Positions 29,701-44,837 of a DNA stretch of 64,000 nucleotides are shown piece after piece (position 1 is the stretch's first letter; each line of letters starts with the position of its first letter). The position numbers and the translations under genes were made by a program. The notes beneath the pieces are model-generated. The model ran no database searches and was not told the origin of the DNA. It saw nothing but the letters and a program-made list of their open reading frames with translations. This stretch comes from Lachnospiraceae bacterium (GTDB lineage Bacteria > Bacillota > Clostridia > Lachnospirales > Lachnospiraceae): positions 5,518-69,517 of the forward strand of contig SVEL01000011.1 in the NCBI GenBank assembly GCA_015057425.1, read 5' to 3'.

Positions 29701-30521
29701 ACATTTGCAAGAATAAAGTAGCTAAACCTACAGTATTTATACCTGTATTCCCGGGTACGAACTGTGAATATGACAGTGCAAGAGCATTCGAAAGAGCAGG
29801 TGCAAATGTAATTACAAAGATATTCAGAAATCTTGATGCAGAAAGTATCAGAGAATCAGTTCAGATATTTGAAGAAAGTATCAATCAGGCACAGATTATT
29901 ATGTTCCCTGGCGGATTCTCAGCAGGTGATGAACCTGATGGTTCAGCTAAATTCTTCGCTACAGCATTCAGAAATGAAAAGATGAAAGAAGCTGTACACA
30001 AGCTCTTAAATGAAAGAGATGGTCTTGCTCTTGGTATCTGTAATGGTTTCCAGGCACTTATAAAGCTTGGACTTGTGCCAAACGGTCAGATTACAGGTCA
30101 GGATGAAAATGCACCAACACTTACATTTAATACAATTAACAGACACGTATCTAAGATGGTATATACAAAGGTAGTTACAAACAAGTCTCCTTGGTTACAG
30201 CTTGCAGAACTCGGAAAGACATATGTTAACCCTGCTTCACACGGTGAAGGCAGATTTGTTGCAAATGAAGAGTGGTTAAAGAAACTCTTTGAAAATGGTC
30301 AGGTAGCTACACAGTACGTTGACGAATTTGGTAATCCTACAATGGATGAAGAATGGAACGTAAATGGTTCATATATGGCTATTGAAGGTATTACAAGTCC
30401 GGACGGACGCTGCTTTGGTAAGATGGCACATTCAGAAAGACGCGATCGTTCAGTTGCTATGAATATCTACGGAGATCAGGATCTTAAGATATTTGAATCA
30501 GGTGTTAAGTACTTTAGCTAA
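26733..30521 (+). CDS. purL: phosphoribosylformylglycinamidine synthase, single-chain form
   Basis: 1262 aa. FGAM synthetase core plus a C-terminal glutamine amidotransferase (GICNGFQ). Its start overlaps the upstream gene by 14 nt. Confidence 0.95.
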   Translation: MSKVKRVYVEKKAPYAVKAKELFEEIGSYLGIKTVTGVRELVRYDVENISEDTYVKALVTVFSEPPVDNLYEEEFPYNADADRVFSVEFLPGQFDQRADSAEQCIKFLKEDEEPVIKTAITYVIEGTVTDEQFASIKAFCINPVDSRETGLVKPDTLVTVFDEPADVIIFDGFIDMDDDKLKELYASLNLAMTFKDFKFIQTYFAGEEKRNPSMTEIRVLDTYWSDHCRHTTFSTELKDVAFDDGYYNEPIVATYNQYIADRNDIFAGRKDKFVCLMDLALMAMRKLKKEGKLADQEESEEINACSIVVPVEVERDGKVETEEWLVNFKNETHNHPTEIEPFGGAATCLGGAIRDPLSGRTYVYQAMRVTGAADPTVSVKDTMKGKLPQKKLVRGAANGYSSYGNQIGLATGLVKEIYHPNYVAKRMEIGAVMGAAPRRAVIRETSDPGDIIILLGGRTGRDGCGGATGSSKVHTEASIETCGAEVQKGNAPTERKIQRLFRREEVSKLIKKCNDFGAGGVSVAIGELAPGLDINLDKVPKKYAGLDGTEISISESQERMAVVVDPKDVAQFLKYAAEENLEAIEVAVVKEDPRLTLVWRGKTIVDISRAFLDTNGAHQETNVAVDMPVKEDNYFNEKKVENVEEKWMSTLADLNVCSQKGLVEMFDGSIGAGSVFMPHGGRYQLTETQAMVAKLPVLDGKSDTVTMMSYGFDPYLSTWSPYHGAIYAVVESVAKIVANGGEYKKIRFTFQEYFRRMTEDPKRWSQPFTALLGAYDAQLGFGLPSIGGKDSMSGTFNDIDVPPTLVSFAVDVAKEKDVITPELKKAGNSLVVFKIEKDRYDKPVYAQVMKLYDMIHELIQKKAIVSAYSIDSKGIAAAVSKMAFGNKFGVNISADVKAEDLFAVGFGNIVAEVAAEQLDTLKAVMSGMEDAYAVIGNVTDEKAITYGNMKIELDKAIAAWEAPLEKVFPTKAVKDGKALDTPVYDKGQIYICKNKVAKPTVFIPVFPGTNCEYDSARAFERAGANVITKIFRNLDAESIRESVQIFEESINQAQIIMFPGGFSAGDEPDGSAKFFATAFRNEKMKEAVHKLLNERDGLALGICNGFQALIKLGLVPNGQITGQDENAPTLTFNTINRHVSKMVYTKVVTNKSPWLQLAELGKTYVNPASHGEGRFVANEEWLKKLFENGQVATQYVDEFGNPTMDEEWNVNGSYMAIEGITSPDGRCFGKMAHSERRDRSVAMNIYGDQDLKIFESGVKYFS

Positions 30522-30555
30522 TGAAGACATTCCGACACATAAAGGGGGTAATGAT

Positions 30556-31068
30556 ATGGAGAAACATACAAAGAGACTGTATATAATCACTATAGCTAAT
30601 TTTATATTGTTTGTACTAATGCTGTTGTTCTGTTTCCAGAATAAAGAAATAGATGTAGATGGTCTGTGTATAGATTGTATTGGAGAAAGCGGAACAACAG
30701 ATATTCTGTTTATGGGATTTCTTATAAATATATTACAAGTTGTTTTTGCAGCGATAATGTGCATCTGCTTAAGATGGTTTAGGAAACCGGATGGCAATTT
30801 AGGAATAGCCGTTTTTAGTGTTATTAATATGATTCTTTCATTTTGGCAGGTATTTTGGTTCATTAGTTGTAGTGTTGATTTTGGTACCGGGCATGGAAGT
30901 CCGACGACAGCCCGTGGACAACTTATAGTAGATATGCTGGAAATCCAGGTGAGTACTGTAAAAGTGATGAATATAGTGATGATTATCGTAAATATCCTGT
31001 TACTTATATGTGTAAGAACGTGGTATGCGACAGAGAAGAAAAAACTCTATGAATACCTTAATAGCTAA
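30556..31068 (+). CDS. hypothetical membrane protein
   Basis: ATG 30556 follows a GGGGGTAATGAT RBS region. About 4 TM helices. Confidence 0.55.
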   Translation: MEKHTKRLYIITIANFILFVLMLLFCFQNKEIDVDGLCIDCIGESGTTDILFMGFLINILQVVFAAIMCICLRWFRKPDGNLGIAVFSVINMILSFWQVFWFISCSVDFGTGHGSPTTARGQLIVDMLEIQVSTVKVMNIVMIIVNILLLICVRTWYATEKKKLYEYLNS

Positions 31069-31102
31069 AGAATTTATATTTGAAATTTTTAAGTAATGTT
31101 AA

Positions 31103-31145
31103 AAATGCACCAAGATGATAAAACATTTTGGTGCATTTCTTTTTG
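31103..31145. terminator. bidirectional terminator
   Basis: The aaatgcaccaa / ttggtgcattt stem, then a T-rich run. Confidence 0.7.
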
Positions 31146-31186
31146 TAATTCAATATAAAATTTTATTTAAAAATCAGTTTGAAAAA

Positions 31187-32056
31187 TTATCTGTGATTTC
31201 CCATAAAGAAAAGTGCTACGGTACCGGGACCTGCATGGGCACCGATTGTCGGGCTGATATAATCAATCATTATATTGTTAAAGCCTAACTTTTCCTTCAC
31301 CATATCAGCTACATACTTGGCATCTTCGAGACAATCGCCGTGACCGATGAAGATGTCATTGTTTTCACCTGTATATCCTTCAACAAGTTCGGCCATCTTA
31401 TCTACAAGCGCAGCAAGAGCTTTCTTTCTGCCGCGTACATTACACAATGAAACAAGACGTCCTTCATCATTGACGTGAAGAACCGGTTTTACATTTATAA
31501 GAGTACCAACAATGGCAGTAGTCTTAGAAACACGTCCTCCTCTATGAAGATGGAATAAATCATTTACAGTGAAAATATGTCCGAGGTTAAGCTTGTTTTC
31601 TTCAAGCCATGTTGCAACCTCGTCTATGGAAGCACCCTTTTCTTTCATAATAACTGCTTTGTGAACAAGGAGGCCTTCGCCTAAAGCTGCGGCTAAAGAA
31701 TCAATTACGTGGATTTTTGCATCCGGGTAATCTTCCTTAAGTTCATTTGCAATTATCATAGCATTGTTGTATGTGCTACTGAGAGCAGAAGAAAAACATA
31801 CATACAAAATATCTTTTCCGTTGTTAATGCAATCAAGAAAAATATCTTTAATTTCTTCGGGAACACCGGCCATAGTGCTTGGCATCTTGCCGTCTCTCAT
31901 ATGCTTGTAAAATTCGATTATACTCATTTGGTTTTCTGCGCCGTATACAACGCCGTCCAATGTATAACATAAAGGTACAATCTTTAGATTGTGTTTCTCT
32001 ACGTAAGAAGCAGGTAAATCGCAAGTAGTATCTGAAATAATAACAAAATCTTTCAT
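31187..32056 (-). CDS. DegV-family fatty-acid-binding protein
   Basis: 289 aa. Typical N-terminus IISDTTCDLP. Confidence 0.9.
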   Translation of the reverse strand: MKDFVIISDTTCDLPASYVEKHNLKIVPLCYTLDGVVYGAENQMSIIEFYKHMRDGKMPSTMAGVPEEIKDIFLDCINNGKDILYVCFSSALSSTYNNAMIIANELKEDYPDAKIHVIDSLAAALGEGLLVHKAVIMKEKGASIDEVATWLEENKLNLGHIFTVNDLFHLHRGGRVSKTTAIVGTLINVKPVLHVNDEGRLVSLCNVRGRKKALAALVDKMAELVEGYTGENNDIFIGHGDCLEDAKYVADMVKEKLGFNNIMIDYISPTIGAHAGPGTVALFFMGNHR

Positions 32057-32157
32057 AAAATAACCTAAAACAGTTTACTGTATCCTTCCTTTTTTAATGT
32101 CTTAGTTAATAATAACATCATCTGCCACAAAAATCTATACAAAAAGACAGAAATTTA

Positions 32158-32185
32158 TTGACATTATTTTTTTGTAAATTATAAT
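32158..32185 (+). promoter_or_regulatory. putative promoter of the metal ABC genes
   Basis: TTGACA (32158-32163), 16 nt spacer, TATAAT (32180-32185). It is embedded in an AAATTTATT...AATAAATTT inverted repeat. Confidence 0.5.
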
Positions 32186-32253
32186 AAATTTTGATGACAA
32201 GATAAAAGAAAAAGTTGAAAAATAAGGGAAAACCTGAACAAAGGGAGAAAAAT

Positions 32254-33009
32254 ATGTCCTTAATAACATGCGAAGACGTAACATTATCATATGATTCAAA
32301 AGATGTAATCAGCGGGCTTTCATTTGAAGTAAATGAAGGTGATTATTTGTGTATACTTGGAGAAAATGGTTCCGGTAAAAGTACACTTATAAAAGCGGTT
32401 CTTGGACTTAAAGGGACATCAAAAGGAAAGATTTCCTTTGGCGATGGCCTTAAACAGCGGGAAATAGGATATATACCACAGCAAACTCAGGTACAAAAGG
32501 ACTTTCCGGCCACAGTGTGGGAGATAGTCCGTTCGGGATTTTTAAATAAAATGGGTTTTAGAATGTACTATTCTAAGGATGAAAATGCTAAAGCTCTTGA
32601 AATAATGAAGAAGTTGAATATAGAAGAATTTAAGAATAGAAGCTACAGGGAATTGTCGGGTGGTCAGCAACAACGTGTTTTACTTGCCAGAGCACTTTGC
32701 GCTACTACGAAAGTATTGCTTCTTGATGAACCGGTTGCAGGCCTTGACCATATGATGACCGTTCAGCTCTACAATCTTATTGAAAAGATAAATAAAGAAG
32801 ATAATATTACGATTATAATGGTGTCTCACAACCATGATGCGGCTATGAAATATGCAAGCCATATACTGCATATTCATAAAGATAATATGTATTTTGGTTC
32901 AAAAGAAGATTATCTTGAATGTCCGGTATGCAAGAAGGAAGATGAAAAAGTTCCTCATATTGTAGCGGGACATGCAAAGCATGTAGATAAGTGTAATCAT
33001 AAACACTGA
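32254..33009 (+). CDS. metal (Zn/Mn-type) ABC transporter ATP-binding protein with Cys/His-rich C-terminal tail
   Basis: Walker A GENGSGKST, signature LSGGQQQR. Tail ECPVCKKEDEKVPHIVAGHAKHVDKCNHKH. ATG 32254 is preferred over the TTG at 32215. Confidence 0.85.
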   Translation: MSLITCEDVTLSYDSKDVISGLSFEVNEGDYLCILGENGSGKSTLIKAVLGLKGTSKGKISFGDGLKQREIGYIPQQTQVQKDFPATVWEIVRSGFLNKMGFRMYYSKDENAKALEIMKKLNIEEFKNRSYRELSGGQQQRVLLARALCATTKVLLLDEPVAGLDHMMTVQLYNLIEKINKEDNITIIMVSHNHDAAMKYASHILHIHKDNMYFGSKEDYLECPVCKKEDEKVPHIVAGHAKHVDKCNHKH

Positions 33010-33070
33010 TAACCATAGGCAGACGTCAGAAAGCAAGGTGTGTCAGTATTATAAATATCGGAGGAAACAG

Positions 33071-33913
33071 ATGGGATATGTATTAGAAGAACTTGAACTG
33101 TTCTTTTCATTATCATTTATACAAAGAGCGCTTGTGTCAGGAGCGTTTATATGTCTTTGCGCGGCACTTTTAGGTGCATCGCTTGTGCTAAAGAGATATT
33201 CTATGATTGGTGATGGGTTATCACATGTAGGATTTGGTACATTGGCAGTGGCAACTGCACTTGATGTAAATGATGTGACATTTCAGGTATCGCTGCCGGT
33301 TGTGATTATTACTGCTTTTTTATTACTTAGAATAAGTGACAACAGTAAGATAAAAGGCGATTCGGCTATAGCGATAATATCTACAACGGCGTTGGCAATT
33401 GGTTATATAGTAATGTATAAGCATGGAACTAATATAGATGTAAGTAATTATATGTTTGGCAATATATTCACCATTACTGAAAGAGACGGAATTATAAGTG
33501 TGGTATTAGCGATTGTGGTTATATTGTTATTTGTATTTTTTTATCACAAAATATTTGCAGTTACATTTGACGAGACATTTGCAAGAGCGGTGGGAATAAA
33601 AGCCGGTTTCTATAATGGTGTAATAGCGGTGCTTACAGCGGTGGTAGTTGTTCTTGGTATGAGAATGATGGGAACGCTTCTGATATCAGCTATAATCATT
33701 TTCCCTTCACTTATATCAATGAAAGTTTGTAAAAGCTTTAAAAATGTAGTAATTTTGGCGGCAATATTTGCAGTAATATGTTTCTTTGTGGGAAGTGTTT
33801 CTGCACATCTGCTTGATATACCGACAGGCTCGACAATAGTAGTTATCAATACACTGGTGTTGATACTTGTAAGTATATTTAATTTGGTAAAATCGAGAGT
33901 AAGAACAGAATAA
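33071..33913 (+). CDS. metal ABC transporter permease (ABC-3 family)
   Basis: About 280 aa, 8-9 TM helices, ZnuB/MntB-like. ATG 33071 is preferred. Confidence 0.85.
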   Translation: MGYVLEELELFFSLSFIQRALVSGAFICLCAALLGASLVLKRYSMIGDGLSHVGFGTLAVATALDVNDVTFQVSLPVVIITAFLLLRISDNSKIKGDSAIAIISTTALAIGYIVMYKHGTNIDVSNYMFGNIFTITERDGIISVVLAIVVILLFVFFYHKIFAVTFDETFARAVGIKAGFYNGVIAVLTAVVVVLGMRMMGTLLISAIIIFPSLISMKVCKSFKNVVILAAIFAVICFFVGSVSAHLLDIPTGSTIVVINTLVLILVSIFNLVKSRVRTE

Positions 33914-33926
33914 TGATAATCGGATA

Positions 33927-33975
33927 AAAGAAGCTGAAGAGAATGTTGAAAAATGTTTGCTTCAGCTTCTTTTTT
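33927..33975. terminator. bidirectional terminator at the boundary to the recombinase island
   Basis: The aaagaagctgaag / cttcagcttcttt stem followed by a T run. Confidence 0.7.
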
Positions 33976-34001
33976 GATGAAACATTTTTCGTATAAAAGA
34001 C

Positions 34002-35591
34002 TTATATAGAATTATTAATGTATCTGAAATAAATTTTGATTTCAGGTTGTGTATTCCTGGAATGATACGTTTTTCGTTTGCCAACGTGAATTGAATGAAT
34101 AAGAGAGGACATCACGTCAGATGTAATGGTTTCTATCGGACCGAGGGCTAAGGAAATCTCAGTAAGCTTTACGATGTTTTCGTAATTATTTTTAGCAGTG
34201 TTATATTCTTTCTCTAAGGCAGACAGATTCTTCCTGGCAGCAGTAATCTTTAAATCGTATGCATTTGTCAAAGTTTTAAAATGTTCTAAAGATATATTTC
34301 CTGTCGCATAATCCTTGTACGAGGAGACTAAAAGCTGGTCTAATTCTTCTATAAGTTCTTTGCAGGAAGAAATTTTCTTTGAAATAGAGTTTTGCTGCTG
34401 TGTCTGCTTTGAGATGGATTTTTGAATGTAACTTTCGATAAAACTCTGCTTATTATCAGAAACGGCAAGGAAAAGTTTGTTTATTTCCCGGAGCAAAGCT
34501 TCTTCTATCACGTGATTTCGCACATAATGAGAAGTACATACAGATGGAACCTTCTTGCTGTTGCTGCAAACATAGTGGCTGGTATCGGGATTGGAATTGT
34601 TACTTCGACCGTGATACATTCTTCCTTTACAATCATCACAATATACGTAGCCTGAAAAAATATCATTCTCTCCCAATCTGTTTGGTCGTCTTTTTAAGGA
34701 ACGTCGTTTTTTGACAAGTTCAAATTCGTCATCAGTGATTATTGGCGGGTGCATATTCGGAACGACAATGTGCGAGTCAGGCGGATTTTTGATAACCTTT
34801 TTACTCTTAAATGAAGGTCTGTAAGTTTTACCGCTTACAACACAACCTGTATATGTTTGATTTTCCAAAATGTTTACAATTGTAGATTTATCCCATATGT
34901 AAGGGTGCTCGGCACGTTTTTTGGAATAATATAAGCCGCTTTTTCTGTAATTATAGGCACCCGGAGAGAGGATTTGATGAGATTCCATATATCTGGAAAT
35001 TTGAGAAGGACCCATTCCCTCTATACATAGTTTAAATATAAGTCTGACATTTGGAGAGGTTTCCGGGTTGATGATATATTGCTTGCTTTCGGAATCCTTC
35101 ATATAACCATAAGGCACCGAGCCGGAAATGTGTTCGCCACGTAACGCCATGGAATGTTGGATAGCACGAATCTTTCGGCTTGTGTCCTTTGGATACCATT
35201 CATTAAATAAATCCCGCATCGGCAATAAATCATCAAGCCCTTTGTTGGTGTCAATGCCATCATTTACAGCGATGTATCTTATATTGTGGGCAATAAAATC
35301 ATCCATAAGAGAGCCGATTACAAGATAATTTCTTCCGAGTCGTGAATGATCTTTTACTATGATAGTGGAAATATCTCCATTTCGTACCTGGGACAACAGT
35401 CGGCTGAATGCCGGTCTTTCAAAATTGGTACCGGACCAACCATCGTCGATGTAGTATTCAATGTTAGTGAAATGGTGTTCGAAAGCATAGTTTCTTAAGA
35501 AAATTTTCTGGTTACTGATACTTCCGCTTTCTGTGTTTTGTTCATCGTCTTTACTTAATCTGCAGTAAAGTGCTGTAATCTTTTGTTTCAT
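34002..35591 (-). CDS. large serine recombinase (resolvase/invertase catalytic domain, recombinase domain, zinc ribbon, coiled coil)
   Basis: 529 aa. N-terminus ALYCRLSKDDE...SISNQ contains the catalytic Ser motif. VKDHSRLGRN motif. Cys cluster YCDDCKGRMY...YVCSN. Confidence 0.9.
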   Translation of the reverse strand: MKQKITALYCRLSKDDEQNTESGSISNQKIFLRNYAFEHHFTNIEYYIDDGWSGTNFERPAFSRLLSQVRNGDISTIIVKDHSRLGRNYLVIGSLMDDFIAHNIRYIAVNDGIDTNKGLDDLLPMRDLFNEWYPKDTSRKIRAIQHSMALRGEHISGSVPYGYMKDSESKQYIINPETSPNVRLIFKLCIEGMGPSQISRYMESHQILSPGAYNYRKSGLYYSKKRAEHPYIWDKSTIVNILENQTYTGCVVSGKTYRPSFKSKKVIKNPPDSHIVVPNMHPPIITDDEFELVKKRRSLKRRPNRLGENDIFSGYVYCDDCKGRMYHGRSNNSNPDTSHYVCSNSKKVPSVCTSHYVRNHVIEEALLREINKLFLAVSDNKQSFIESYIQKSISKQTQQQNSISKKISSCKELIEELDQLLVSSYKDYATGNISLEHFKTLTNAYDLKITAARKNLSALEKEYNTAKNNYENIVKLTEISLALGPIETITSDVMSSLIHSIHVGKRKTYHSRNTQPEIKIYFRYINNSI

Positions 35592-35633
35592 TGAAATAAA
35601 CCTCCGTTTGTAATATATTTGTGTAACAATTAT

Positions 35634-35642
35634 ATTATATCA
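35634..35642 (-). promoter_or_regulatory. extended -10 (TGaTATAAT) of the recombinase gene
   Basis: The minus strand reads agTGaTATAAT, about 45 nt upstream of the recombinase ATG (RBS GGAGG). Confidence 0.5.
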
Positions 35643-35643
35643 C

Positions 35644-35675
35644 TATGGCGGTATACCATTAGGGAACCCGCCATA
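35644..35675 (-). other. dyad-symmetric candidate recombinase binding/crossover site
   Basis: The minus strand reads TATGGCGG-gttccctAAtggtata-CCGCCATA: perfect 8 bp arms and a 16 nt spacer. The centre falls on the AA of the CCTAA core shared with the four cassette genes. Confidence 0.5.
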
Positions 35676-35805
35676 AGGGAGATAAAGAAACTAGGGATAA
35701 AAGAAGAGAAGTGATTCAGATAAATATATACCCAAAACGCTTCTCTAAAAGATGGAACTTCCTATATTAGAATTAATGATTATAAAATTGAATTAAATAG
35801 ATAGA

Positions 35806-36663
35806 TTATAGTTTGCAAGTACCACAATCTTTAGATTTCAGATCATTAAATTTCATTACAAATTCATCAACTGTTTTCGACTCTATCGCAAAGTCAAACC
35901 ACTTATCAAGAATATCCGAATTATTTTCATCTTTGATGGAACAAGTAACAATCTCAGGCACATCACCAAGTCGACAGAGTATACGTAATATATATTCAGT
36001 TTTGCCTTCATGTTTAGCTTTTTTTGATGTGCGATTAAGCAATTCTTCAAACTTCATATATCCCGCCTCCAATTCACGACTCTTTTTGAGTTTTGTTACC
36101 TCTTCGTGCAGCTTATGTATCAAAGGATTTTTGACGGTTGATACATATTCGTCACTTGTATTTTCGAAGTATTCAAAAAATTCCCGCAGCTCATCAGGTA
36201 AACTCTCAACATCTTTACCTTTAGTGTTAAAGAAAATCCTTTTAGCGCCATCACCAAGCTTCGCACCATCTTCTGAGCAGGATGCTTCATATGTATATCT
36301 GCAAAGTCCACGTCCAAACGGATCAAATGTACAGATAAATATGATAAAGCTATCTCCGAGTTTGTCATAACTGTCACCCGGTTTCAAAGAAGATATATCA
36401 ACTTCAGCCTGGTAATAACGACTTCGCTTTGGCAAATCATCTTCAGAGAAATTCTGCGCTTCAATATCATAATTAACATCAAATGAATCTGTTGCATGTA
36501 CATCAAGACGGATACATTTAACATCTGAGCTTATAAGTATCGGATGTTCTGACTTAACATTTAGATTATCCACGTGCTTTCCAAGCAACAATTCCAACAT
36601 AATTCTACAGTTATCGGGATTTTCAAATACAGCTGCAAAAAGAAAAGAACTGTTCAAATTCAA
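35806..36663 (-). CDS. Rpn-family recombination-promoting nuclease / PD-(D/E)XK putative transposase
   Basis: 285 aa. RLDVHATD...NYDIEAQN...RSRYY matches the D/ExQ/R-Y pattern of the PDDEXK_2 (YhgA/Rpn) family. The start codon is uncertain: TTG at 36663, or ATT 9 nt after GGAGG. Confidence 0.7.
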   Translation of the reverse strand: MNLNSSFLFAAVFENPDNCRIMLELLLGKHVDNLNVKSEHPILISSDVKCIRLDVHATDSFDVNYDIEAQNFSEDDLPKRSRYYQAEVDISSLKPGDSYDKLGDSFIIFICTFDPFGRGLCRYTYEASCSEDGAKLGDGAKRIFFNTKGKDVESLPDELREFFEYFENTSDEYVSTVKNPLIHKLHEEVTKLKKSRELEAGYMKFEELLNRTSKKAKHEGKTEYILRILCRLGDVPEIVTCSIKDENNSDILDKWFDFAIESKTVDEFVMKFNDLKSKDCGTCKL

Positions 36664-36728
36664 ATCTTTAAACTCTTTACTAATTATTAAACACCTCCTA
36701 CAAAATAGGAAGTTCCCTCTCTTAGAGA

Positions 36729-36756
36729 ATTATACCACTTATTGTATGTAAGTCAA
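36729..36756 (-). promoter_or_regulatory. promoter of the left Rpn gene
   Basis: The minus strand reads TTGACT, 16 nt spacer, TGgTATAAT. Confidence 0.55.
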
Positions 36757-36785
36757 TATATTTTGTATAAATAATTAGTGCCGAA

Positions 36786-36868
36786 TAAAAAACCGAGAGA
36801 CATTGTCTCTCGGTGGGAAAAGGAAAAACAAGCAAAAAAGAAGTCATACCCAAAAGTATGACTTCTTT
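36786..36868 (-). terminator. twin terminator hairpins downstream of cassette gene A
   Basis: On the minus strand: agaagtcatac...gtatgacttct plus a T run, then ccgagagacaatgtctctcgg plus a T run. Confidence 0.7.
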
Positions 36869-36900
36869 ATTAGTGAGAGTTAATTTATCAAGTAAGCTGA

Positions 36901-37827
36901 TTATTCAGCAACGGTTCTCTTTCTCATAACAACAACTACTGCCATAGCAGCTACTGCTAAGATAGCTACTGGAAGAACTGCTGTCATATCACCTGTTTCT
37001 GTTGCATCTTCTGTTTCTGTCTCTGTTGCAGTAGGAGCTGCATATAAAGCTGCTACATCTGCCGCACTTAATTCGCGTTCATAAATGCACACTTCGTCCA
37101 TTAAACCAGAGAAGTTAGCATTCCACCAGTCGCCACTTCCAATAAAACCAACATCTGTCCAAGATGCTGCATCATCACTAAACATGTTTAAATATGTTGA
37201 GCCATTGTCTGTAGAATAAGCAAACCAACCATCGTCAGTATAATTAGCTTCATCCCAGTATGTTGAAACTTCAACACCATCTACATAAACTGTTGCTTTG
37301 CCTGTTGCTGAAACAGTATATGTTAACATTGTCCACTTTGATGTATCCTGACCAACCTTACCTGTTCTCCAATGGTCACCTACTGCTGATTCCCAACTAA
37401 ATGCGCTTGACATAGCTGCACGTGATGCTGCGAATGCATCTGTTGTGTTATTTGAACAGAACTGGAAATACTGACAGCAACCGTCAAAGAACAATGCTGT
37501 TCCTGTTGCGTCATTCTTTACCCAATAACTAACTGTAAAAGCTGTTGTTGTAGGAAGCTTATCCAAGGCAATAGCTACTGCTGCGTTTGCAAGTGTACTT
37601 GTGCCAGCATTTGCTGAAAAGTCAAATGCTTTACCTTTGATACCACCGTCAACATAAGCCGCTGTTCCTTTGTTAAGTGTTGCATCTGAGTCAGCGGCAT
37701 CATTTGCCAAACTATCTTCGAAAGAGTATTTTGCTATTAACCCCGTTTCGATATCAGCCGCAAATGCAGGCGCTGCTAATGCAAGTGTCATTACTGTAGC
37801 TACTGCTACTGCAAAAAATTTCTTCAT
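36901..37827 (-). CDS. secreted LamG/concanavalin-like surface protein, cassette paralog A
   Basis: The start MKKFFAVAVATVMTLALAAPAFA follows GGAGG. LamG-type motif DEVCIYERELSAADVAALY. C-terminus ATETGDMTAVLPVAILAVAAMAVVVVMRKRTVAE. Confidence 0.85.
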   Translation of the reverse strand: MKKFFAVAVATVMTLALAAPAFAADIETGLIAKYSFEDSLANDAADSDATLNKGTAAYVDGGIKGKAFDFSANAGTSTLANAAVAIALDKLPTTTAFTVSYWVKNDATGTALFFDGCCQYFQFCSNNTTDAFAASRAAMSSAFSWESAVGDHWRTGKVGQDTSKWTMLTYTVSATGKATVYVDGVEVSTYWDEANYTDDGWFAYSTDNGSTYLNMFSDDAASWTDVGFIGSGDWWNANFSGLMDEVCIYERELSAADVAALYAAPTATETETEDATETGDMTAVLPVAILAVAAMAVVVVMRKRTVAE

Positions 37828-37887
37828 TTTTCTTTCTACCTCCAATATTAATGTGGTATTCCCCAAAGATAAAAATATATATTTAGG
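37779..37887 (-). repeat. conserved 5' module (CCTAA core, leader, RBS, signal-peptide codons), copy A
   Basis: Near-identical to 38817-38946, 39166-39295 and 41383-41512. Confidence 0.85.
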
Positions 37888-37922
37888 GAACCCGCCATAA
37901 GGGAGATGAAGAAAGAGAAATG

Positions 37923-37956
37923 AAAAAGAAGTCATACCAAAAAGTATGACTTCTTT
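37923..37956 (-). terminator. terminator hairpin downstream of cassette gene B
   Basis: The agaagtcatac / gtatgacttct stem plus a T run on the minus strand. Confidence 0.65.
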
Positions 37957-37989
37957 CATTAGTGAGAATTAATTTATTAAGTATGCTGA

Positions 37990-38886
37990 TTATTCAGCGA
38001 CTGTTCTCTTTCTCATAGCAACAACTACTGCCATAGCAGCTACTGCTAAGATAACTACAGGAAGAACTGCTGTCATATCACCTGTTTCTGTTGCTTCTTC
38101 TGTTTCTGTTTCCTGAATGAATTCGCCTGCTGCTGCTGATGCAACTCCAGCTGCATCTAATTCATCAAACCAAATTGCTACATCATCAAACAAAAGATGT
38201 GAGTCTCTATCTGTCCAGCAGTGATTGTGATATCCACCGATAGTAGCTATAGTATACAAATCTGAGAATGCATCACCAGTATCTGTACGATCTAAACTAT
38301 TAAGAACTTCGCCATCAAGATAAACAACTGACTTTGTAGCAGTTACAGTATAAACCAAATGATGCCACTCGTTGTCATCAAGATATCCGTCATAATTGTT
38401 TGTGTTATATGCGTTGTTATCAAAGAAACCGCCGTTATTAACATGCATTGTTCCTCTAACACCAAAAACTGTCCACTGCCAGTCAGCATCAGGATTCTGC
38501 GCTGTAAATATTGGTGCCCAGCCGTCGCCGATTTCTGTCCAATTAGTAACATCATTATTTGACGCAGGTGATTTTACCCACATACTAAGTGAAAACTCTT
38601 CTGCTGCTGCAAGATCTTCCAAAAACTTTTCAGGAAGTTTTAAATAATCTGTACGCTGTGCTGAAGCTGAACCAGTTACGTTGTCAAATACCTTTCCGCG
38701 TGCATCATCTGCAATTGCACCTGATCCAACAATTGTAAGTGCTGTATCTGTTTCTCCTGCAAGACCTGCATTGTTTAAATTTCCTTCGAAATCATAATAA
38801 TAATTAGGTGCATCCATTGCGAAAGCTGAAACTGACATAGCAAGTGTTGTCACTGTAGCTAAAGCTACTGCAAAAATTTTTTTCAT
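37990..38886 (-). CDS. secreted LamG-like surface protein, cassette paralog B
   Basis: Start MKKIFAVALATVTTLAMSVSAFA. Motif FDDVAIWFDELDAAGVA. Same ETGD-TM-RKRTVAE tail. Confidence 0.85.
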   Translation of the reverse strand: MKKIFAVALATVTTLAMSVSAFAMDAPNYYYDFEGNLNNAGLAGETDTALTIVGSGAIADDARGKVFDNVTGSASAQRTDYLKLPEKFLEDLAAAEEFSLSMWVKSPASNNDVTNWTEIGDGWAPIFTAQNPDADWQWTVFGVRGTMHVNNGGFFDNNAYNTNNYDGYLDDNEWHHLVYTVTATKSVVYLDGEVLNSLDRTDTGDAFSDLYTIATIGGYHNHCWTDRDSHLLFDDVAIWFDELDAAGVASAAAGEFIQETETEEATETGDMTAVLPVVILAVAAMAVVVAMRKRTVAE

Positions 38887-38946
38887 TTTTCTTTCTACCT
38901 CCAATATTAATGTGGTATTCCCCAAAGATAAAAATATATATTTAGG
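38817..38946 (-). repeat. conserved 5' module, copy B (left arm of the inverted repeat flanking the B-C intergenic segment)
   Basis: The first 83 nt from the core are identical to copy C in inverted orientation. A few mismatches follow, out to ~130 nt. Confidence 0.85.
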
Positions 38947-39110
38947 GAACCTGCCATAAGGGAGATGAAGAAAGAAGAGAATGATATGTTGTGAAAACTT
39001 GATAAGTTTCGATAAAGAGTTGACACAGCGTTTAGTATAAATGTGGAGTTTTACTAAACAAAACGTGGTAAAATTCGGATTAAAAAAATAAAAAAAGAAT
39101 TAACATTATG

Positions 39111-39139
39111 TTGACAATAACTTAAATAAATGATATTAT
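39111..39139 (+). promoter_or_regulatory. near-consensus sigma-A promoter facing cassette gene C
   Basis: TTGACA (39111-39116), 17 nt spacer ending in TGa, TATTAT (39134-39139). Confidence 0.65.
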
Positions 39140-39165
39140 TTTTTTATCTTAAAAAAAGAGGTATG

Positions 39166-39295
39166 CCTAAATATATATTTTTATCTTTGGGGAATACCAC
39201 ATTAATATTGGAGGTAGAAAGAAAAATGAAAAAAATTTTTGCAGTAGCTATGGCTACAGTAATGACACTTGCTATGTCAGTTTCAGCTTTCGCTG
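39166..39295 (+). repeat. conserved 5' module, copy C (right arm of the inverted repeat)
   Basis: Homology to the other copies begins exactly at CCTAA (39166-39170). The upstream sequence is unique and carries the promoter. Confidence 0.85.
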
Positions 39296-40137
39296 CAACA
39301 CCAGTTTACTTCAATGATTTTGAAGATGGCGCAGGCGATGCAACAATCGTAGGTAGTGGTGCAATTGAAGATGATGCCAATGAAAAATATGGAAAGGTTT
39401 TCCATAACGCAGTAGGCGATGCAACAAATGTTAGAACAAATTACTTGCTTTTACCGGAAGATGTATTATCACATAGCGTAGATTCAAAAGAATTAACTAT
39501 TCAGTTTTGGGTCAACTTAGGTGCAACAGGTACAAATGATATGTATTCTCCGTTATTTGGTGCTTATGCTGCAGAACCACCTGCAACAGGAAATTCATGG
39601 CCGATGTTGGTTCTTCAGTCAAGATTACTTGCTCAGGTTAACTGTGCCGGATGGAGTGATCTTACAGCAGATCAGAATCTTGAAGGCGGAAATACAGAAG
39701 ATGTTACATGGTTAGATGACAAAGAATGGCACTTATACACAGTTACATTTGATGAAGAAATCGTAACAATTTATGTTGATGGTGTTGTTAAGCAGAAATG
39801 GGATGCTTCAACAGATTATGGCACAAACACTGACACAACAGTAGCTGGTTTGTATTCAAACGGTGCAGACCTTAAGTATATCTGCCTTGGTGGTAACCAG
39901 GCTTGGAACTGGGGCGATCCAGATGCTGACTATTTATTTGATGATGTTGCAATCTACAACGTAGCTTTATCAGCAGATGATATTGCTGATGTTATGGAAG
40001 CAAAGACAGCAGAAGCTTCAGACACAGAAGATGCAACAGAAACAGGTGATATGACAGCAGTTCTTCCAGTAACTATCTTAGCAGTAGCTGCTATGGCAGT
40101 AGTTGTTGTTATGAGAAAGAGAACAGTTGCTGAATAA
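39226..40137 (+). CDS. secreted LamG-like surface protein, cassette paralog C
   Basis: Start MKKIFAVAMATVMTLAMSVSAFA. Motif FDDVAIYNVALSADDIADV. Same ETGD-TM-RKRTVAE tail. Confidence 0.85.
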   Translation: MKKIFAVAMATVMTLAMSVSAFAATPVYFNDFEDGAGDATIVGSGAIEDDANEKYGKVFHNAVGDATNVRTNYLLLPEDVLSHSVDSKELTIQFWVNLGATGTNDMYSPLFGAYAAEPPATGNSWPMLVLQSRLLAQVNCAGWSDLTADQNLEGGNTEDVTWLDDKEWHLYTVTFDEEIVTIYVDGVVKQKWDASTDYGTNTDTTVAGLYSNGADLKYICLGGNQAWNWGDPDADYLFDDVAIYNVALSADDIADVMEAKTAEASDTEDATETGDMTAVLPVTILAVAAMAVVVVMRKRTVAE

Positions 40138-40169
40138 TCAGCTTACTTAATAAATTAACTCTCACTAAT

Positions 40170-40251
40170 AAAGAAGTCATACTTTTGGGTATGACTTCTT
40201 TTTTGCTTGTTTTTCCTTTTCCCGCCGAGAGACAATGTCTCTCGGTTTTTT
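40170..40251 (+). terminator. twin terminator hairpins downstream of cassette gene C
   Basis: The same two hairpins as at 36786-36868, in mirror orientation. Confidence 0.7.
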
Positions 40252-40278
40252 ATACTCATTGTTTTTATGCAAAATGTA

Positions 40279-40306
40279 TTGACATATAAACAATATGTGG
40301 TATAAT
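40279..40306 (+). promoter_or_regulatory. promoter of the right Rpn gene
   Basis: TTGACA (40279-40284), 16 nt spacer, TGgTATAAT (-10 at 40301-40306). Confidence 0.6.
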
Positions 40307-40341
40307 GAATGAAAGGAAACTTCCTGTTTTGTAGGAGGTGT

Positions 40342-41238
40342 TTGTTAATTAATAAGGATTTTAAAGATTTAAATTTAAACAGTTCGTTTCTTTTTGCGGC
40401 AGTATTTGAAAATCCAGACAATTGCAGAATTATGCTGGAACTGTTACTTGGGAAACACATCGACAATCTAAGTGTTAAATCTGAGCATCCGCTACTTATA
40501 AGTACAGATGTCAAATGTATTCGGCTCGATGTACATGCCACAGATTCCTACGATGTTAATTATGATATCGAAGCACAGAATTTCTATGAGGATGACCTGG
40601 CAAAGAGAAGCCGTTATTATCAAGCAGAATTAGATGTGGCATCTTTAAAACCTGGTGACAGCTATGATAAACTTGGTGATTCTTTTATCATATTTATCTG
40701 TACATTTGATCCGTTCGGTCGAGGGCTTTGCAGATATACATATGAAGCCTCTTGTTCAGAGGATGGCGAAAAGCTTGGCGATGGCGCAAAAAGGATTTTC
40801 TTTAATACCAAAGGAAAAGATGTGGAGAGTTTATCTGCTGAACTGAGGGAGTTTTTTGGATATTTCGAAAACACAAATGACGCGTATGTATCAACTGTCA
40901 ACAATCCTTTGATACACAAGTTACATAAAGAAGTTACCAAACTTAAAAAGAGTCGTGAATTGGAGGCCGGATATATGAAGTTTGAAGAGTTGCTCAATCG
41001 AACATCGGAAAAAGCTAAGCGTGAAGGCAAAATTGAAGGTAAGATCGAAGATATATTACGTATACTCTGTCGCCTTGGTGATATCCCTGAAGATGTCACC
41101 TGTTCTATCAAGCACGAAAACAATTCAGAGATTCTCGATAAGTGGTTTGACATTGCAATAGAATCAAAAAACGTTGATGAATTTATAAAAAAGTTTAAAA
41201 GTCTGAACTCTAAGGATTATGGTGCTTACAAACTATAA
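40342..41238 (+). CDS. Rpn-family recombination-promoting nuclease / PD-(D/E)XK putative transposase (second copy)
   Basis: Roughly 85-90 percent identical by eye to the 35806-36663 product, with one 4 aa indel. The ORF-track ATG at 40309 lies 2 nt after the -10 and so upstream of the likely TSS. The real start is probably TTG 40342 or ATT 40348. Confidence 0.7.
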   Translation: MLINKDFKDLNLNSSFLFAAVFENPDNCRIMLELLLGKHIDNLSVKSEHPLLISTDVKCIRLDVHATDSYDVNYDIEAQNFYEDDLAKRSRYYQAELDVASLKPGDSYDKLGDSFIIFICTFDPFGRGLCRYTYEASCSEDGEKLGDGAKRIFFNTKGKDVESLSAELREFFGYFENTNDAYVSTVNNPLIHKLHKEVTKLKKSRELEAGYMKFEELLNRTSEKAKREGKIEGKIEDILRILCRLGDIPEDVTCSIKHENNSEILDKWFDIAIESKNVDEFIKKFKSLNSKDYGAYKL

Positions 41239-41382
41239 TCTGTCTATTTGATTAAAATTTATTATCATTAAAGATTTACACAGGAAGTTCCATCTTTTTA
41301 GAGAAGTGTTTTGGGTATATATTTATCTAAATCACTTCTCTTATTTTATCCCTATTTTCTTCATATCCCTTATGGCAGGTTC

Positions 41383-41512
41383 TCTAAATATATATTTTTA
41401 TCTTTGGGGAATACCGCATTAATATTGGAGGTAGAAAGAAAAATGAAGAAAATTTTTGCAGTAGCAGTAGCTACAGTAATGACACTTGCTATGTCAGTTT
41501 CAGCTTTCGCTG
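41383..41512 (+). repeat. conserved 5' module, copy D
   Basis: Same leader, RBS and signal peptide. The core has one change (tctaa). Confidence 0.8.
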
Positions 41513-42237
41513 CAACAGAAGACAGGGTTGTTTATCAGAAAAATACTTATGCACTTGATGGTGATGCAACAACAGTAGAAAGTATGGATAATCCATTATT
41601 AAATCTTGATGCAAGCAAGATTGTAGTTGAATTCACAGTAACATCTCAGCAGCAGTTTGCAGCTTGGCCTATGGTAGCTTGTTTCTACAATTTAGATGAT
41701 AACGATGCTCCAAGAGGTGCAGCAGCAGTCAATTACTGGCCAAAGATTGAATTAAACAAATTTGATGATCCAAACCAGTGGTGTTCAGCAGGTTCAGGTG
41801 AGGCAAACAACGGTGGTACAATTTATGCGGATACACACTGTGATGGTCAGCCACATACATACAAATATGAAATCACAGACACAGCTGTTGTTATGACAGT
41901 TGATGGTACAGTCATCACTACAAAGTATGGTTATGGTGATGGGGCTTCAACAGATGCTGAATGTGCTGCTATGATTTTGGATTATATGAATACAGCTGCG
42001 AAATTTTCATTAGGAGCTGGAAGCAATATTTTTACTTGGGGTGAATTAACAGGTACACTTGAAAACTTCAAGATTACAGCTACAGTAGAAGCAACTGAAC
42101 CAACTCCAACAGAAGGAACGGAAACAGAAGATGCAACAGAAACAGGAGATATGACAGCAGTTCTTCCAGTAGCTATCTTAGCAGTAGCTGCTATGGCAGT
42201 AGTAGTTGTTATGAGAAAGAGAACAGTTGCTGAATAA
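41443..42237 (+). CDS. secreted surface protein, cassette paralog D (divergent beta-rich core)
   Basis: Start MKKIFAVAVATVMTLAMSVSAFA. Same ETGD-TM-RKRTVAE tail. The core lacks the LamG end motif. Confidence 0.8.
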   Translation: MKKIFAVAVATVMTLAMSVSAFAATEDRVVYQKNTYALDGDATTVESMDNPLLNLDASKIVVEFTVTSQQQFAAWPMVACFYNLDDNDAPRGAAAVNYWPKIELNKFDDPNQWCSAGSGEANNGGTIYADTHCDGQPHTYKYEITDTAVVMTVDGTVITTKYGYGDGASTDAECAAMILDYMNTAAKFSLGAGSNIFTWGELTGTLENFKITATVEATEPTPTEGTETEDATETGDMTAVLPVAILAVAAMAVVVVMRKRTVAE

Positions 42238-42274
42238 TATTTAGTTACTGAATTTAATAACAAAAATAAGAACA

Positions 42275-42308
42275 AAATCCGGGACTTTAAAAGCCTCGGA
42301 TTTTATTT
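42275..42308 (+). terminator. terminator after paralog D
   Basis: The atccggg / cctcggat stem followed by TTTTATTTT. Confidence 0.55.
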
Positions 42309-42362
42309 TAAACAAAAAGTTTATAAAATTTTTATAATTTTTAGAAAAATGTTATTTAACCA

Positions 42363-42391
42363 TTGACAAATGATATAAAAGAATATAGAAT
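42363..42391 (+). promoter_or_regulatory. promoter of the 42450 gene
   Basis: TTGACA, 17 nt spacer, TAGAAT. Confidence 0.55.
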
Positions 42392-42449
42392 TAGCATTGT
42401 AAGGTAATTGGATTGTATGATTACAAAAAGTCTATTTGGGAGGAGAACA

Positions 42450-43295
42450 ATGAAGAAAAAGTTTTTTGCGGTAGTCGCTACGACTGTGATAACAGCTATG
42501 ATGTCGCTTACAGCATTTGCATCATCGTTTCAGCTTACAGAAAGTAGCACATACAAGTATGCCAATCCGTTAAAAGGTACTAATCCGGAAGAAGTAACTA
42601 TTGAATACACTATCACTGCAGCTGATAATGCAGCGGCAAATGGATGGGATGGTATATTATCATTCTATAACTCGAGTACATTGGGACGTGTTTCTATTCA
42701 AAGTCATCCGTATGTATGTTGGAATTCAGCTAATGCAGCAGCAGGATGGATTGACCATAAGGCATCAGCATTACAGATAAAGAAGGGCGTTGAACAGTCA
42801 TATAAGATTGTTATTAATAAGGATGGAATTCAGATGTTTTTAAATGGTGAAGCAATAACAAGTGCTGATACAGGTACATCGGCAGGCGATGCAACACCTA
42901 TAGCGGTTACATATCAGAATATTCTTGATGAAATTAACGGATGTGATTATTTCTTTGTAGGCGTAGGAAAAGCACAGTATTGCTATTGGAATACGGAGGT
43001 TTGTACGTTAACAGGCGTTAAAGTCAATGGTAAGGAATTTGACCCGGATAAGATTTTGCAGGAAGAGACAACGACGTTGGGAGTTCCTGAAAAGAACACT
43101 ATGGATTATGGTGTTCCTGTAGATGATAGCGGTTCAGTGAATATAGTGCCGGTTATTGTGGTATCGGTAGTTGCAGTTCTTGCAGTGGTTGTGGTTGTAG
43201 TTGTTCTTGTGATTGTTATATCTAAAGGAAAGAAAAAGAATAATGACGAAGAAATAAATAAAGAATCGCAGGAAGAGACGAATTCGGAAGAATAA
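42450..43295 (+). CDS. secreted, TM-anchored surface protein (lectin-like beta-rich ectodomain, acidic cytoplasmic tail)
   Basis: MKKKFFAVVATTVITAMMSLTAFA follows GGGAGGAG. C-terminal TM helix VPVIVVSVVAVLAVVVVVVVLVIVI, then KGKKK and an acidic tail. Confidence 0.75.
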   Translation: MKKKFFAVVATTVITAMMSLTAFASSFQLTESSTYKYANPLKGTNPEEVTIEYTITAADNAAANGWDGILSFYNSSTLGRVSIQSHPYVCWNSANAAAGWIDHKASALQIKKGVEQSYKIVINKDGIQMFLNGEAITSADTGTSAGDATPIAVTYQNILDEINGCDYFFVGVGKAQYCYWNTEVCTLTGVKVNGKEFDPDKILQEETTTLGVPEKNTMDYGVPVDDSGSVNIVPVIVVSVVAVLAVVVVVVVLVIVISKGKKKNNDEEINKESQEETNSEE

Positions 43296-43348
43296 ATTTA
43301 TACAAATTACTTTTGATTAATTTTATTTAATAATCGTTTTACTTTTAT

Positions 43349-43377
43349 TTGACTTTAATACATAAATGTGATATAAT
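43349..43377 (+). promoter_or_regulatory. promoter of the 43446 gene
   Basis: TTGACT, 17 nt spacer ending in TGa, TATAAT. Confidence 0.6.
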
Positions 43378-43445
43378 TTTGTCATATTTATGGGATAAAA
43401 GAAACATAAATTTATCAAATTCAATAATCTAAGGGAGGAAAGAAA

Positions 43446-44543: not shown

Positions 44544-44582
44544 TATTTGTGCTTGATTTATAGTTATTGAATATTGATAAGA

Positions 44583-44615
44583 AAAGGGATGCCAAAGTAA
44601 TGGCGTCCCTTTTTA
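44583..44615 (+). terminator. rho-independent terminator
   Basis: The aagggatgcc / ggcgtccctt stem followed by TTTT. Confidence 0.75.
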
Positions 44616-44746
44616 TGTGCATTTTTAACAAAAAAACTTTGATATAAAATAAAAAGCAGTGGCTTTGTACAAAATTACTAAAATTTCCAAAGGTATTAAA
44701 TTTTTATAAATATAGTAAATATGTACAAAAATAGGGGGTAGTTTTC

Positions 44747-44775
44747 TTGACTTTTAGGGTAATTATGTATATAAT
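44747..44775 (+). promoter_or_regulatory. promoter of the glycan-uptake locus
   Basis: TTGACT (44747-44752), 17 nt spacer, TATAAT (44770-44775). It leaves a ~155 nt leader. Confidence 0.6.
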
Positions 44776-44799
44776 CGTACCATAGTATCAATATGCCCT

Positions 44800-44837
44800 A
44801 TTGTGAAACCTACGTAAATTTGCGCATGTTTCACAAT
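44800..44837 (+). promoter_or_regulatory. perfect 10 bp inverted repeat in the leader (ATTGTGAAAC-N18-GTTTCACAAT)
   Basis: Read directly. It could be an operator or an RNA hairpin. A second small hairpin lies at 44861-44876. Confidence 0.4.

Follow-up and report, generated by a model that had tools for sequence, protein, structure and literature searches.

Which of several surface-protein genes is expressed when a single promoter stands before only one of them, and by what means could that promoter be passed to another gene? The question is raised by a locus in an uncultured rumen Lachnospiraceae bacterium (MBE5940228.1), within a 64,000-nt stretch of contig SVEL01000011.1 (assembly GCA_015057425.1, positions 5,518-69,517 of the forward strand), which we call the window. 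Here, four surface-protein genes, A to D, lie beside the gene of a large serine recombinase, and each of the five genes is preceded by a short core sequence, CCTAA or a variant of it. Our analysis indicates that the locus is very probably a multi-site DNA-inversion system, that is, a promoter shufflon, run by this chromosomal recombinase. In addition, homologous exchange between the common 5' and 3' ends of the genes separately reshuffles the gene bodies in the window's species.

One promoter, four genes and five sites

Examining the locus revealed one promoter and four genes with a common core and leader (coordinates are given in Table 1). The strong promoter P lies about 25 nt to the left of the core of gene C, in an intergenic cassette of 218 bp. 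The promoter scan found no promoter scoring at least 9/12 in the regions upstream of A, B and D, which suggests that these three genes are silent in the window's present state. We divided each site at its core into a left half, which is either promoterless (U) or carries the promoter (P), and a right half, which is either the gene leader (L) or the recombinase-side sequence (R); a slash marks the junction. A terminator, or a hairpin resembling one, stands before each U segment: the terminator of B abuts the U segment of A, and hairpins following the two Rpn-family genes, Rpn1 and Rpn2, precede the U segments of R and D, respectively, the latter hairpin lying between Rpn2 and the U segment. One promoter, promoterless paralogues that each stand behind a site, and a dedicated recombinase at the locus are the features of a promoter-swapping shufflon.

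Read in gene orientation, the junctions of A, B and D have the form CCTTATGGC(G/A)GGTTC(C/T)CTAA followed by ATATATATTTTTATC, and that of C reads AAAAAGAGGTATGCCTAA followed by ATATATATTTTTATC. A preliminary description of the locus, made from the sequence alone, had distinguished three junction types: U/L upstream of A, B and D, P/L upstream of C, and U/R upstream of the recombinase gene. Aligning the five upstream regions reproduced all three, and their coordinates hold. Counted over 35 nt on each side of the 5-bp core, A, B and D agree with one another at 25-30 positions to the left and 34-35 to the right. Site C agrees with these three at 13-17 positions on its left side and 34-35 on its right, and site R at 26-31 on its left side and 13-14 on its right. 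Two homology boundaries that are independent of each other, one on the left of C and one on the right of R, thus fall on the same 5 bp, and the identity counts agree with the earlier proposal that left-side and right-side homologies were exchanged independently at this point.

The breakpoints do fall at CCTAA, as had been described, but the 5 bp are not uniformly conserved: over 19 sites, one C and the terminal AA alone never vary. The variants are TCTAA (site D of the window) and, in the relatives introduced below, CCAAA (the R site of L019, at ~480) and CACTAA (a U/L site of L011, at ~6884). The retention of the terminal AA in all of them is consistent with a 2-bp AA crossover.

Site R also forms a perfect dyad, TATGGCGG-N16-CCGCCATA, 32 bp in total, with arms at 35644-35651 and 35668-35675. 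Its centre falls between 35659 and 35660, on the AA of the core (CCTA/A); both the dyad and this position are exactly as first noticed. We dropped the rarity of the dyad as evidence, since an 8-N16-8 dyad alone is not statistically special: the window contains 11 perfect ones, against ~1.7 expected from Markov simulations, and most of the others are terminators. What exceeds chance is the coincidence of its centre with the breakpoints and its recurrence in relatives, where the R-type dyad is perfect in L011 and kept at 8-10 of 20 positions in L012, L014, L016 and L019. Across site types, dyad matches out of 20 number 8-13 for U/R, 8-12 for P/L (5 in L014), where they arise from A-rich and T-rich outer arms, and 2-7 for U/L. 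The U segment beside R is 89% complementary to the copy before D, the two forming inverted repeat I11 (35652-35750 versus 41296-41394). As a separate observation, TATGCC stands at -8 to -3 from the centre in the P half-site (39161-39168) and TATGGC at -16 to -11 in U and R (35644-35651); this 8-bp shift recalls the shifted zinc-ribbon-domain motifs of attB and attP half-sites, and may be a coincidence.

In the mechanism that we propose, each of the genes A-D carries a core and the common 5' leader, with P to the left of one core, terminator-insulated U segments to the left of the others, and a fifth site, U/R, on the recombinase's own promoter. The recombinase would bind these sites and cut at the central AA of CCTA/A, with the 2-bp stagger typical of serine recombinases. 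The left and right halves of two inverted sites would then be rejoined, such that the intervening DNA inverts and P moves to another gene. The non-palindromic AA would fix the polarity of the sites; in serine recombinases, the asymmetric 2-bp crossover dinucleotide alone determines how a site is oriented (PMC3556126). U/R would be a genuine partner that re-orients blocks of genes, and the sole possible partner where all genes are co-oriented. Large serine recombinases exchange strands at a 2-bp crossover within sites of 40-50 bp. We infer cleavage at AA from the 32-bp, AA-centred dyad of R and from an exchange confined, at the P-bearing and R junctions, to 5-8 bp in the relatives L014 and L015; the set of site pairs that would react is putative as well.

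Exchange at the core between two near-clonal genomes

The strongest support for site-specific recombination comes from L014 and L015, contigs from two different metagenome-assembled genomes of a congeneric relative, in which the same recombinase is encoded. The two are near-clonal: one flank is identical over 7346 positions, the other differs at 4 in 11731, a block of 2349 bp that has moved between them shows no difference (0/2349), and their promoter cassette of 169 bp shows one. Their junctions, however, are not the same. L014 carries P/Lx, U_T/Ly and U_C/R, and L015 carries P/Ly, U_T/R and U_C/Lx. That is, three left halves (P, U_T and U_C) are permuted relative to three right halves (Lx, Ly and R), all at CCTAA, and the promoter, TTGACA-17-TATAAT, stands before gene X in L014 and before gene Y in L015. 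The order of blocks changes from A-B-C-D to A-C'-B-D, for which two inversions are needed.

The sequence available for this exchange is very short. P differs from U at the base directly 5' of CCTAA and R from L at the one directly 3' of it, and the two leaders diverge 3 nt past the core. At the P-bearing and R junctions, the partners have only 5-8 bp in common, which falls far short of what homologous recombination needs; for the step between U/L and U/R, the figure is 11 bp. Moreover, the U half attached to R changed between the two contigs, which shows that the recombinase-proximal site itself recombines. With junctions exactly at the cores, this comparison bears out the view taken in the preliminary description that conservative site-specific recombination occurs at CCTAA and that the R dyad is a real site. 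The path from L014 to L015 fits both a route through the hub state considered below and a flip of the cassette followed by a U/L x U/R inversion.

The module recurs in related species

At 45-72% identity to the recombinase, a set of proteins stands out as a clade of its own, apart from a bulk of TnpX-like proteins that are ~38% identical. The module that accompanies the clade, one U/R, one P/L and several U/L sites, recurs in at least five related species. In L011, whose recombinase is 72% identical to that of the window, we found a perfect dyad at U/R, a P/L site with GGTATGCCTAA and two U/L sites. U/R, U/L and P/L are all present in L014 and L015 (50% identical), U/R, P/L and two U/L in L016 and L017 (50%), and U/R, with its CCAAA core, and P/L in L019 (52%); L012 and L018 (~50%) show U/R only, on contigs too short for more. 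A cassette of 170-210 bp equivalent to that of the window is present in L011, L014 and L015, L016 and L019. The relatives' loci lie in three different chromosomal neighbourhoods, and L011 and L014 are syntenic and congeneric with the window (FGAM synthase 96% identical).

A site equivalent to R lies 60-130 nt upstream of every clade recombinase examined, reading CTTAYGGC...CC.TAA/TG.. in the relatives. The elements conserved across species are CTTAYGGC at positions -18 to -11 of U, TG(G/C) at the start of R, and the P half-site GTATGCCTAA, which is identical in five species. In L011 and L016, the gene-side sites, all with an L half, lie on one strand and R is the sole site on the other; any inversion there therefore needs R. 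Several independent assemblies end at or just past R, with contig ends 15-570 nt upstream of the recombinase in L013, L017, L018 and L019, and such breaks would be expected from mixed orientations or repeated copies of U. Scanning a genome collection with an alignment of the clade added no new members: among the matches listed were TnpX-like recombinases 35-42% identical, none with the site motifs. Scans of viral contigs yielded no relatives of the recombinase. Taken together, the exchange in L014 and L015, the conserved module, the place of R as a pivot and the coincident breakpoints support the reading of the locus as one of site-specific recombination.

A TnpX-like large serine recombinase

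Judging by its domains, the recombinase is a large serine recombinase of the TnpX-like kind and not a small invertase of the Hin/Gin type, with which it had at first been compared. Pfam identifies Resolvase (PF00239, 7e-22, residues 7-152), Recombinase (PF07508, 7.8e-23, residues 176-298) and Zn_ribbon_recom (PF13408, 1.2e-11, residues 311-371), along with a weak match to DUF4368. All the expected domains are present: an N-terminal resolvase-type catalytic domain with a presumed nucleophilic serine, followed by recombinase and zinc-ribbon domains. The presumed catalytic serine, S13 in a YCRLS motif, is invariant in 13 members of the clade, and residues ~380-480 look helical and heptad-like, as judged by eye from the translation, and may contain the coiled-coil motif that governs synapsis and directionality in this family. 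Among PDB structures, the catalytic domain of TnpX, a clostridial transposase, matches best (2mhc, 1.6e-31) and SPbeta integrase comes next, whereas Gin structures match marginally (4m6f, E 4e-4, over ~75 residues of the catalytic domain). NCBIfam matches to CcrB and XisF fall below the cut-off, and the protein reaches 35.6 bits with the Mpi family model, for which the cut-off is 272. The Hin/Gin-type architecture, ~190 aa with a short C-terminal helix-turn-helix, is not matched by this 529-aa protein.

In the window, as in all relatives examined, the recombinase gene adjoins site R, and its product is probably the catalyst of the exchange at these sites. Its predicted promoter has an extended -10 without a recognisable -35; site R fills that position, and the promoter scan gives no -35/-10 pair. 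On the minus strand, TGATATAAT begins 1 nt beyond the dyad arm, in keeping with the earlier remark that the right arm of the dyad abuts the extended -10. The recombinase may regulate its own expression through site R.

Observations that weigh against the proposed shufflon

A number of observations, brought together here, count against a shufflon run by this enzyme, and many of them come from the window's own species. The locus is present on ~17 contigs, drawn from at least 10 samples, and on every one of them the cassette with P, between B and the C position, has the same orientation. Four contigs of the species deviate in other ways: L110 (ENA ERZ27248306), L111 (JGI 3300022753), L114 (JGI 3300028242) and L007. 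In L110 and L111 alike, the core connects P with the A leader. L110 continues with the complete A body, then a C-type 3' flank and Rpn2, and ends in U_A/leader; L111 has the A-type leader on P at one end and U_A/leader with the A body at the other. We rejected an inversion between sites A and C as their origin, since the silent copy of A is still in place and one homologous replacement explains both contigs. They are best explained if a copy of A took the place of the C body, with crossovers that would lie in the common leader and signal region and in the common 3' anchor and terminator repeat. L007 (5567-5700) has a mosaic signal peptide with B-type single-nucleotide polymorphisms in C, that is, a gene-conversion mosaic.

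In L114, Rpn2 and U_D are co-oriented with the recombinase gene, and U_D meets leader_A at a U_D/leader_A junction with the crossover somewhere from -4 to +29, an arrangement for which an A x D inversion is needed. However, the homology between these partners extends over ~150 nt, and A occurs on the contig in two copies. We treated L114, possibly a recombinant or else a chimera formed through the 3' repeat, as no more than weak evidence; the switch points within the common 3' repeat differ between L110 and L114. RecA-type exchange, with crossovers inside the long conserved gene ends, is thus seen in L110, L111, L114 and L007. As judged from these junctions, homologous cassette exchange is active in the window's species, beside core-delimited junctions which it does not explain. 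Site-specific switching is not directly seen in this species, where only L114 hints at an A x D inversion, and may take place there as well.

Other points concern the enzyme and its sites. The leader half-site is poorly conserved between species and forms no dyad with U, making the binding of a dimer to U/L hard to explain. Canonical large serine integrases, furthermore, recombine attP with attB only, unless a directionality factor is present.

A further point concerns the state in which P faces the recombinase gene. A search of the state space under unrestricted pairing gave 48 states; one step takes P to A or to B, and two steps take it to D. We therefore rejected the idea that R is required to reach D in the window, as the two steps do not involve R; R is obligatory in L011 and L016 only. 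The preliminary description had proposed an inversion between R and C that brings P to the recombinase. This is one step in the search and geometrically possible, but the predicted P/R junction, AAAAAGAGGTATGCCTAATGGTATACCGCCATAG, has not come to light. Scanning a metagenome collection with GTATGCCTAATGGYAWACYBCC returned 3 matches, all in unrelated high-GC contexts and without a recombinase, and equal in number to the ~3 chance matches expected by a rough estimate. The junction was not found in any locus examined either, and the cassette beside R always points away from the recombinase in L011, L016, L017 and L019. The P/R state may arise only transiently, as an intermediate, or not at all. 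For the exchange that would bring P to B, the predicted junctions are P/L_B, reading GGTATGCCTAA, the common 55-nt leader and ATGAAAAAAATTTTTGCAGTAGCTTTAGCTACAGTGACAACACT, and U_B/L_C, reading GGCAGGTTCCCTAA, the common 55-nt leader and ATGAAAAAAATTTTTGCAGTAGCTATGGC.

Alternative explanations

Could homologous exchange account for the locus by itself? In such an account, RecA-type recombination or gene conversion acts alone, CCTAA is the edge of a homogenised tract, and the recombinase is the remnant of an unrelated mobile element. The A copy at the expression site of L110 and L111, with switch points in the common leader and the 3' repeat, agrees with it, as do the differing 3'-repeat switch points of L110 and L114, the mosaic signal peptide of L007 and the lack of a flipped cassette among the contigs of the window's species. 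We nevertheless consider it unlikely. It cannot account for U homology ending at the same 5 bp beside the recombinase, where R and the leader have nothing in common, nor can it give rise to L014 and L015, given the short stretches common to the partners there. It would also leave unexplained why GTATGCCTAA and CTTAYGGC are conserved across species in non-coding DNA and why they are constantly associated with one recombinase clade at three chromosomal locations. Another account, which we regard as highly improbable, takes the R dyad to be an operator for autorepression of the recombinase and nothing else, its likeness to U being left over from an inverted duplication. The dyad does overlap the -35 position and abut the extended -10, and it stands at the end of the inverted duplication formed by 35652-37032 and 40006-41394. 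However, the U half at R is U_C in L014 and U_T in L015, changed together with everything upstream, meaning that the site has recombined, and R is the sole possible inversion partner in L011 and L016. The roles of operator and recombination site are, moreover, not mutually exclusive.

The remaining question is which rules the sites of the shufflon obey. Under strict att logic, a hub-and-spoke refinement, U/R would be attP-like, P/L attB-like, U/L attR-like and P/R attL, and only attP x attB and attL x attR would react. Every switch would then pass through a hub, with P directed into the recombinase gene and the surface genes all in one orientation, and direct-repeat U/L sites could never delete. 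We view these rules as a tentative possibility, well short of an even chance. The dyad scores separate U/R, P/L and U/L in a manner that resembles attP, attB and hybrid sites, the escape of tandem U/L sites from deletion would be explained, and the recombinase belongs to a family in which such rules are established. The change from L014 to L015 would be a two-step path through the hub. The complete arrangements seen (the window, L011, L014, L015 and L016) are each one R x P-site inversion away from the all-co-oriented state, and only about half of the states reachable under unrestricted pairing are such spokes, although this test is weak (joint chance ~0.03 if all states are equally likely). 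Against the rules stand the P/R junction, which was never observed, and the cassette beside R, which faces away from the recombinase in four species; the U_D/L_A junction of L114 would be unreachable unless made by homologous exchange, and no directionality factor was identified. Somewhat more doubtful still is the wider idea that the locus is a natural 'rewritable' switch of the serine-integrase type that works through the hub state and is independent of a directionality factor, self-limiting, deletion-proof and multi-state. Recombination of U/R with P/L would yield the hub, where the strong promoter drives the recombinase while the surface genes, all in one orientation, stay silent. A surge of recombinase would follow and resolve P/R with any U/L, giving a newly expressed gene and restoring low recombinase expression, and tandem silent genes would never be deleted because attR x attR is forbidden.

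Relation to known systems

The promoter-addition shufflons of Mycoplasma are the closest systems in function. Like the locus described here, they have a single expression site and silent surface-protein paralogues, each behind a short site and a conserved 5' end, with an adjacent recombinase gene and inversions between oppositely oriented sites. The present locus differs in its extra site on the recombinase's promoter, its Gram-positive rumen host and its ConA-like anchored proteins, which are not lipoproteins. The vsa, vpma and vsp systems, which are cited as shufflons, also rely on tyrosine recombinases, in contrast to the large serine recombinase here (PMC11868660).

In chemistry, the closest systems are Hin, Gin, Cin and Pin and the Min system of p15B, in which a serine recombinase is likewise encoded beside invertible DNA; with Hin, as proposed here, an invertible promoter is involved. 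Sites of the Hin/Gin type are imperfect dyads with a non-palindromic AA. Here, the R dyad is centred on AA and the AA is invariant in 19 sites, whereas U/L has little dyad symmetry. Large serine recombinases normally need no Fis-dependent enhancer. By contrast, the Hin/Gin-type enzymes, with their ~190 aa and C-terminal helix-turn-helix in place of the 529 aa and the recombinase and zinc-ribbon domains found here, use a Fis-bound enhancer that enforces inversion (PMC3798978).

The closest systems in sequence are TnpX (Tn4451), phage integrases, CcrAB, XisF and SpoIVCA, and site R beside the recombinase gene is comparable to attP beside int. The known roles of large serine recombinases are integration and excision, transposition and developmental excision (PMC3556126). 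In the literature searched, of which coverage was incomplete, we came across neither a natural promoter shufflon run by a large serine recombinase nor chromosomal multi-site reversible inversion by one for phase variation. Engineered serine-integrase promoter switches resemble the locus in that a promoter between inverted sites drives one of two divergent genes (PMC12286644, PMC6511857). Those switches are synthetic and two-state and use a directionality factor for reversal, whereas the present system is natural and multi-site, with no directionality factor identified. The sap locus of Campylobacter fetus also has one promoter and paralogues with conserved 5' regions, and homologous cassette exchange of its kind occurs in L110, L111 and L007. 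In sap, switching is RecA-dependent and is not known to involve a dedicated recombinase or short core. Here, in contrast, the breakpoints at P- and R-bearing junctions fall within 5-8 bp.

Large serine recombinases are otherwise regarded as unidirectional integrases, transposases and developmental excisases, and are valued in genome engineering. Reversible shuffling of one promoter among several genes, through at least five sites, by a natural member would broaden what is known of the family's biology. It would raise the mechanistic question of how dyad, hybrid and promoter-type sites are all tolerated and how deletion between direct repeats is avoided, and it could provide synthetic biology with a compact multi-state switch. 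The locus also points to phase-variable ConA-like surface proteins in abundant uncultured rumen Lachnospiraceae, where phase variation might serve the evasion of phages or of the host, or change adhesion to substrates. Diversification would act in two layers, as homologous cassette replacement coexists at the same locus.

Layout of the locus and neighbouring genes

Table 1 Features of the locus, in window coordinates
Feature	Position	Strand	Description
Large serine recombinase gene	34002-35591	minus	TnpX-like, 529 aa; Pfam and PDB matches
Extended -10 of the recombinase gene	35634-35642	minus	TGATATAAT; promoter function predicted from the sequence
Site R (U/R)	35641-35678	minus	...CCTTATGGCGGGTTCCCTAA/TGGTATACCGCCATAGTGATATAAT; core CCCTAA 35659-35664
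U segment beside R	35665-35750	minus	Terminator-like hairpin, insulates the site from Rpn1
Rpn1	35806-36663	minus	Rpn-family PD-(D/E)XK gene, copy 1; PF12784; TIGR01784 89.7 bits
Gene A	36901-37827	minus	Surface protein; signal peptide, ConA-like/Laminin_G_3 (Pfam 7.3e-14), C-terminal membrane anchor
Site A (U/L)	37863-37902	minus	U/ATATATATTTTTATC...; core 37883-37888
Gene B	37990-38886	minus	Surface-protein paralogue; Pfam 3.3e-11
Site B (U/L)	38922-38961	minus	U/ATATATATTTTTATC...; core 38942-38947
Promoter cassette	38948-39165	plus	Reverse-complemented U_B, spacer and promoter P; flanked by inverted sites B and C
Promoter P	39111-39139	plus	TTGACA-17-TGATATTAT (TTGACA-17-TATTAT), upstream TG; scan 11/12 with TG
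Site C (P/L)	39153-39190	plus	AAAAAGAGGTATGCCTAA/ATATATATTTTT; core 39166-39170
Gene C	39226-40137	plus	Surface protein currently joined to promoter P; Pfam 9.4e-14
Rpn2	40309-41238	plus	Rpn-family PD-(D/E)XK gene, copy 2; inside the large inverted duplication
Site D (U/L)	41368-41407	plus	Core TCTAA 41383-41387
Gene D	41443-42237	plus	Surface-protein paralogue; common leader, signal peptide, anchor; no Pfam match
Gene E	42408-43295		Further paralogue; own promoter-like site 42363-42391
Gene F	43446-44543		Further paralogue; own upstream region

The products of genes A-D each have a signal peptide, a ConA-like/Laminin_G_3 domain (the Pfam match is missing for D) and a conserved C-terminal hydrophobic anchor. 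Their C-terminal segment is near-identical, ...ETGDMTAVLPV(A/V/T)ILAVAAMAVVV(V/A)MRKRTVAE, and is encoded at 36901-37020, 37990-38110, 40019-40137 and 42118-42237, followed in A-C by similar terminators. With a hydrophobic helix and an RKR tail, and no canonical LPXTG, it looks like a sorting or anchor signal; the same segment doubles as a 3' homology arm for cassette exchange.

The two Rpn genes of the window are inverted and diverged (81-84% identity), have strong promoters of their own and lie within the rearranging region. That of Rpn1 is at 36756-36729 and scores 11/12 with TG in the promoter scan. Rpn2 lies in the large inverted duplication (40006-41394 versus 35652-37032). Rpn genes are also found in L014 (8748-9746) and L015 (7470-8510). 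L011 and L016 have none, which shows that Rpn is not essential to the module. As recombination-promoting nucleases, Rpn proteins could aid homologous cassette exchange in the window's species. An Rfam search of 30000-46000 gave no matches.

Genes E and F have signal peptides similar to those of A-D but carry neither the common leader nor the core nor U, and seem to be constitutive and not part of the switch. A protein of 1058-1109 aa with no Pfam match on record in the window, L011 or L014 (window 44932-48108; L011 1-1940; L014 433-3684) lies at the far end of the surface-gene array. This placement is common to the syntenic relatives, and the protein may have the same surface or uptake function as the array.

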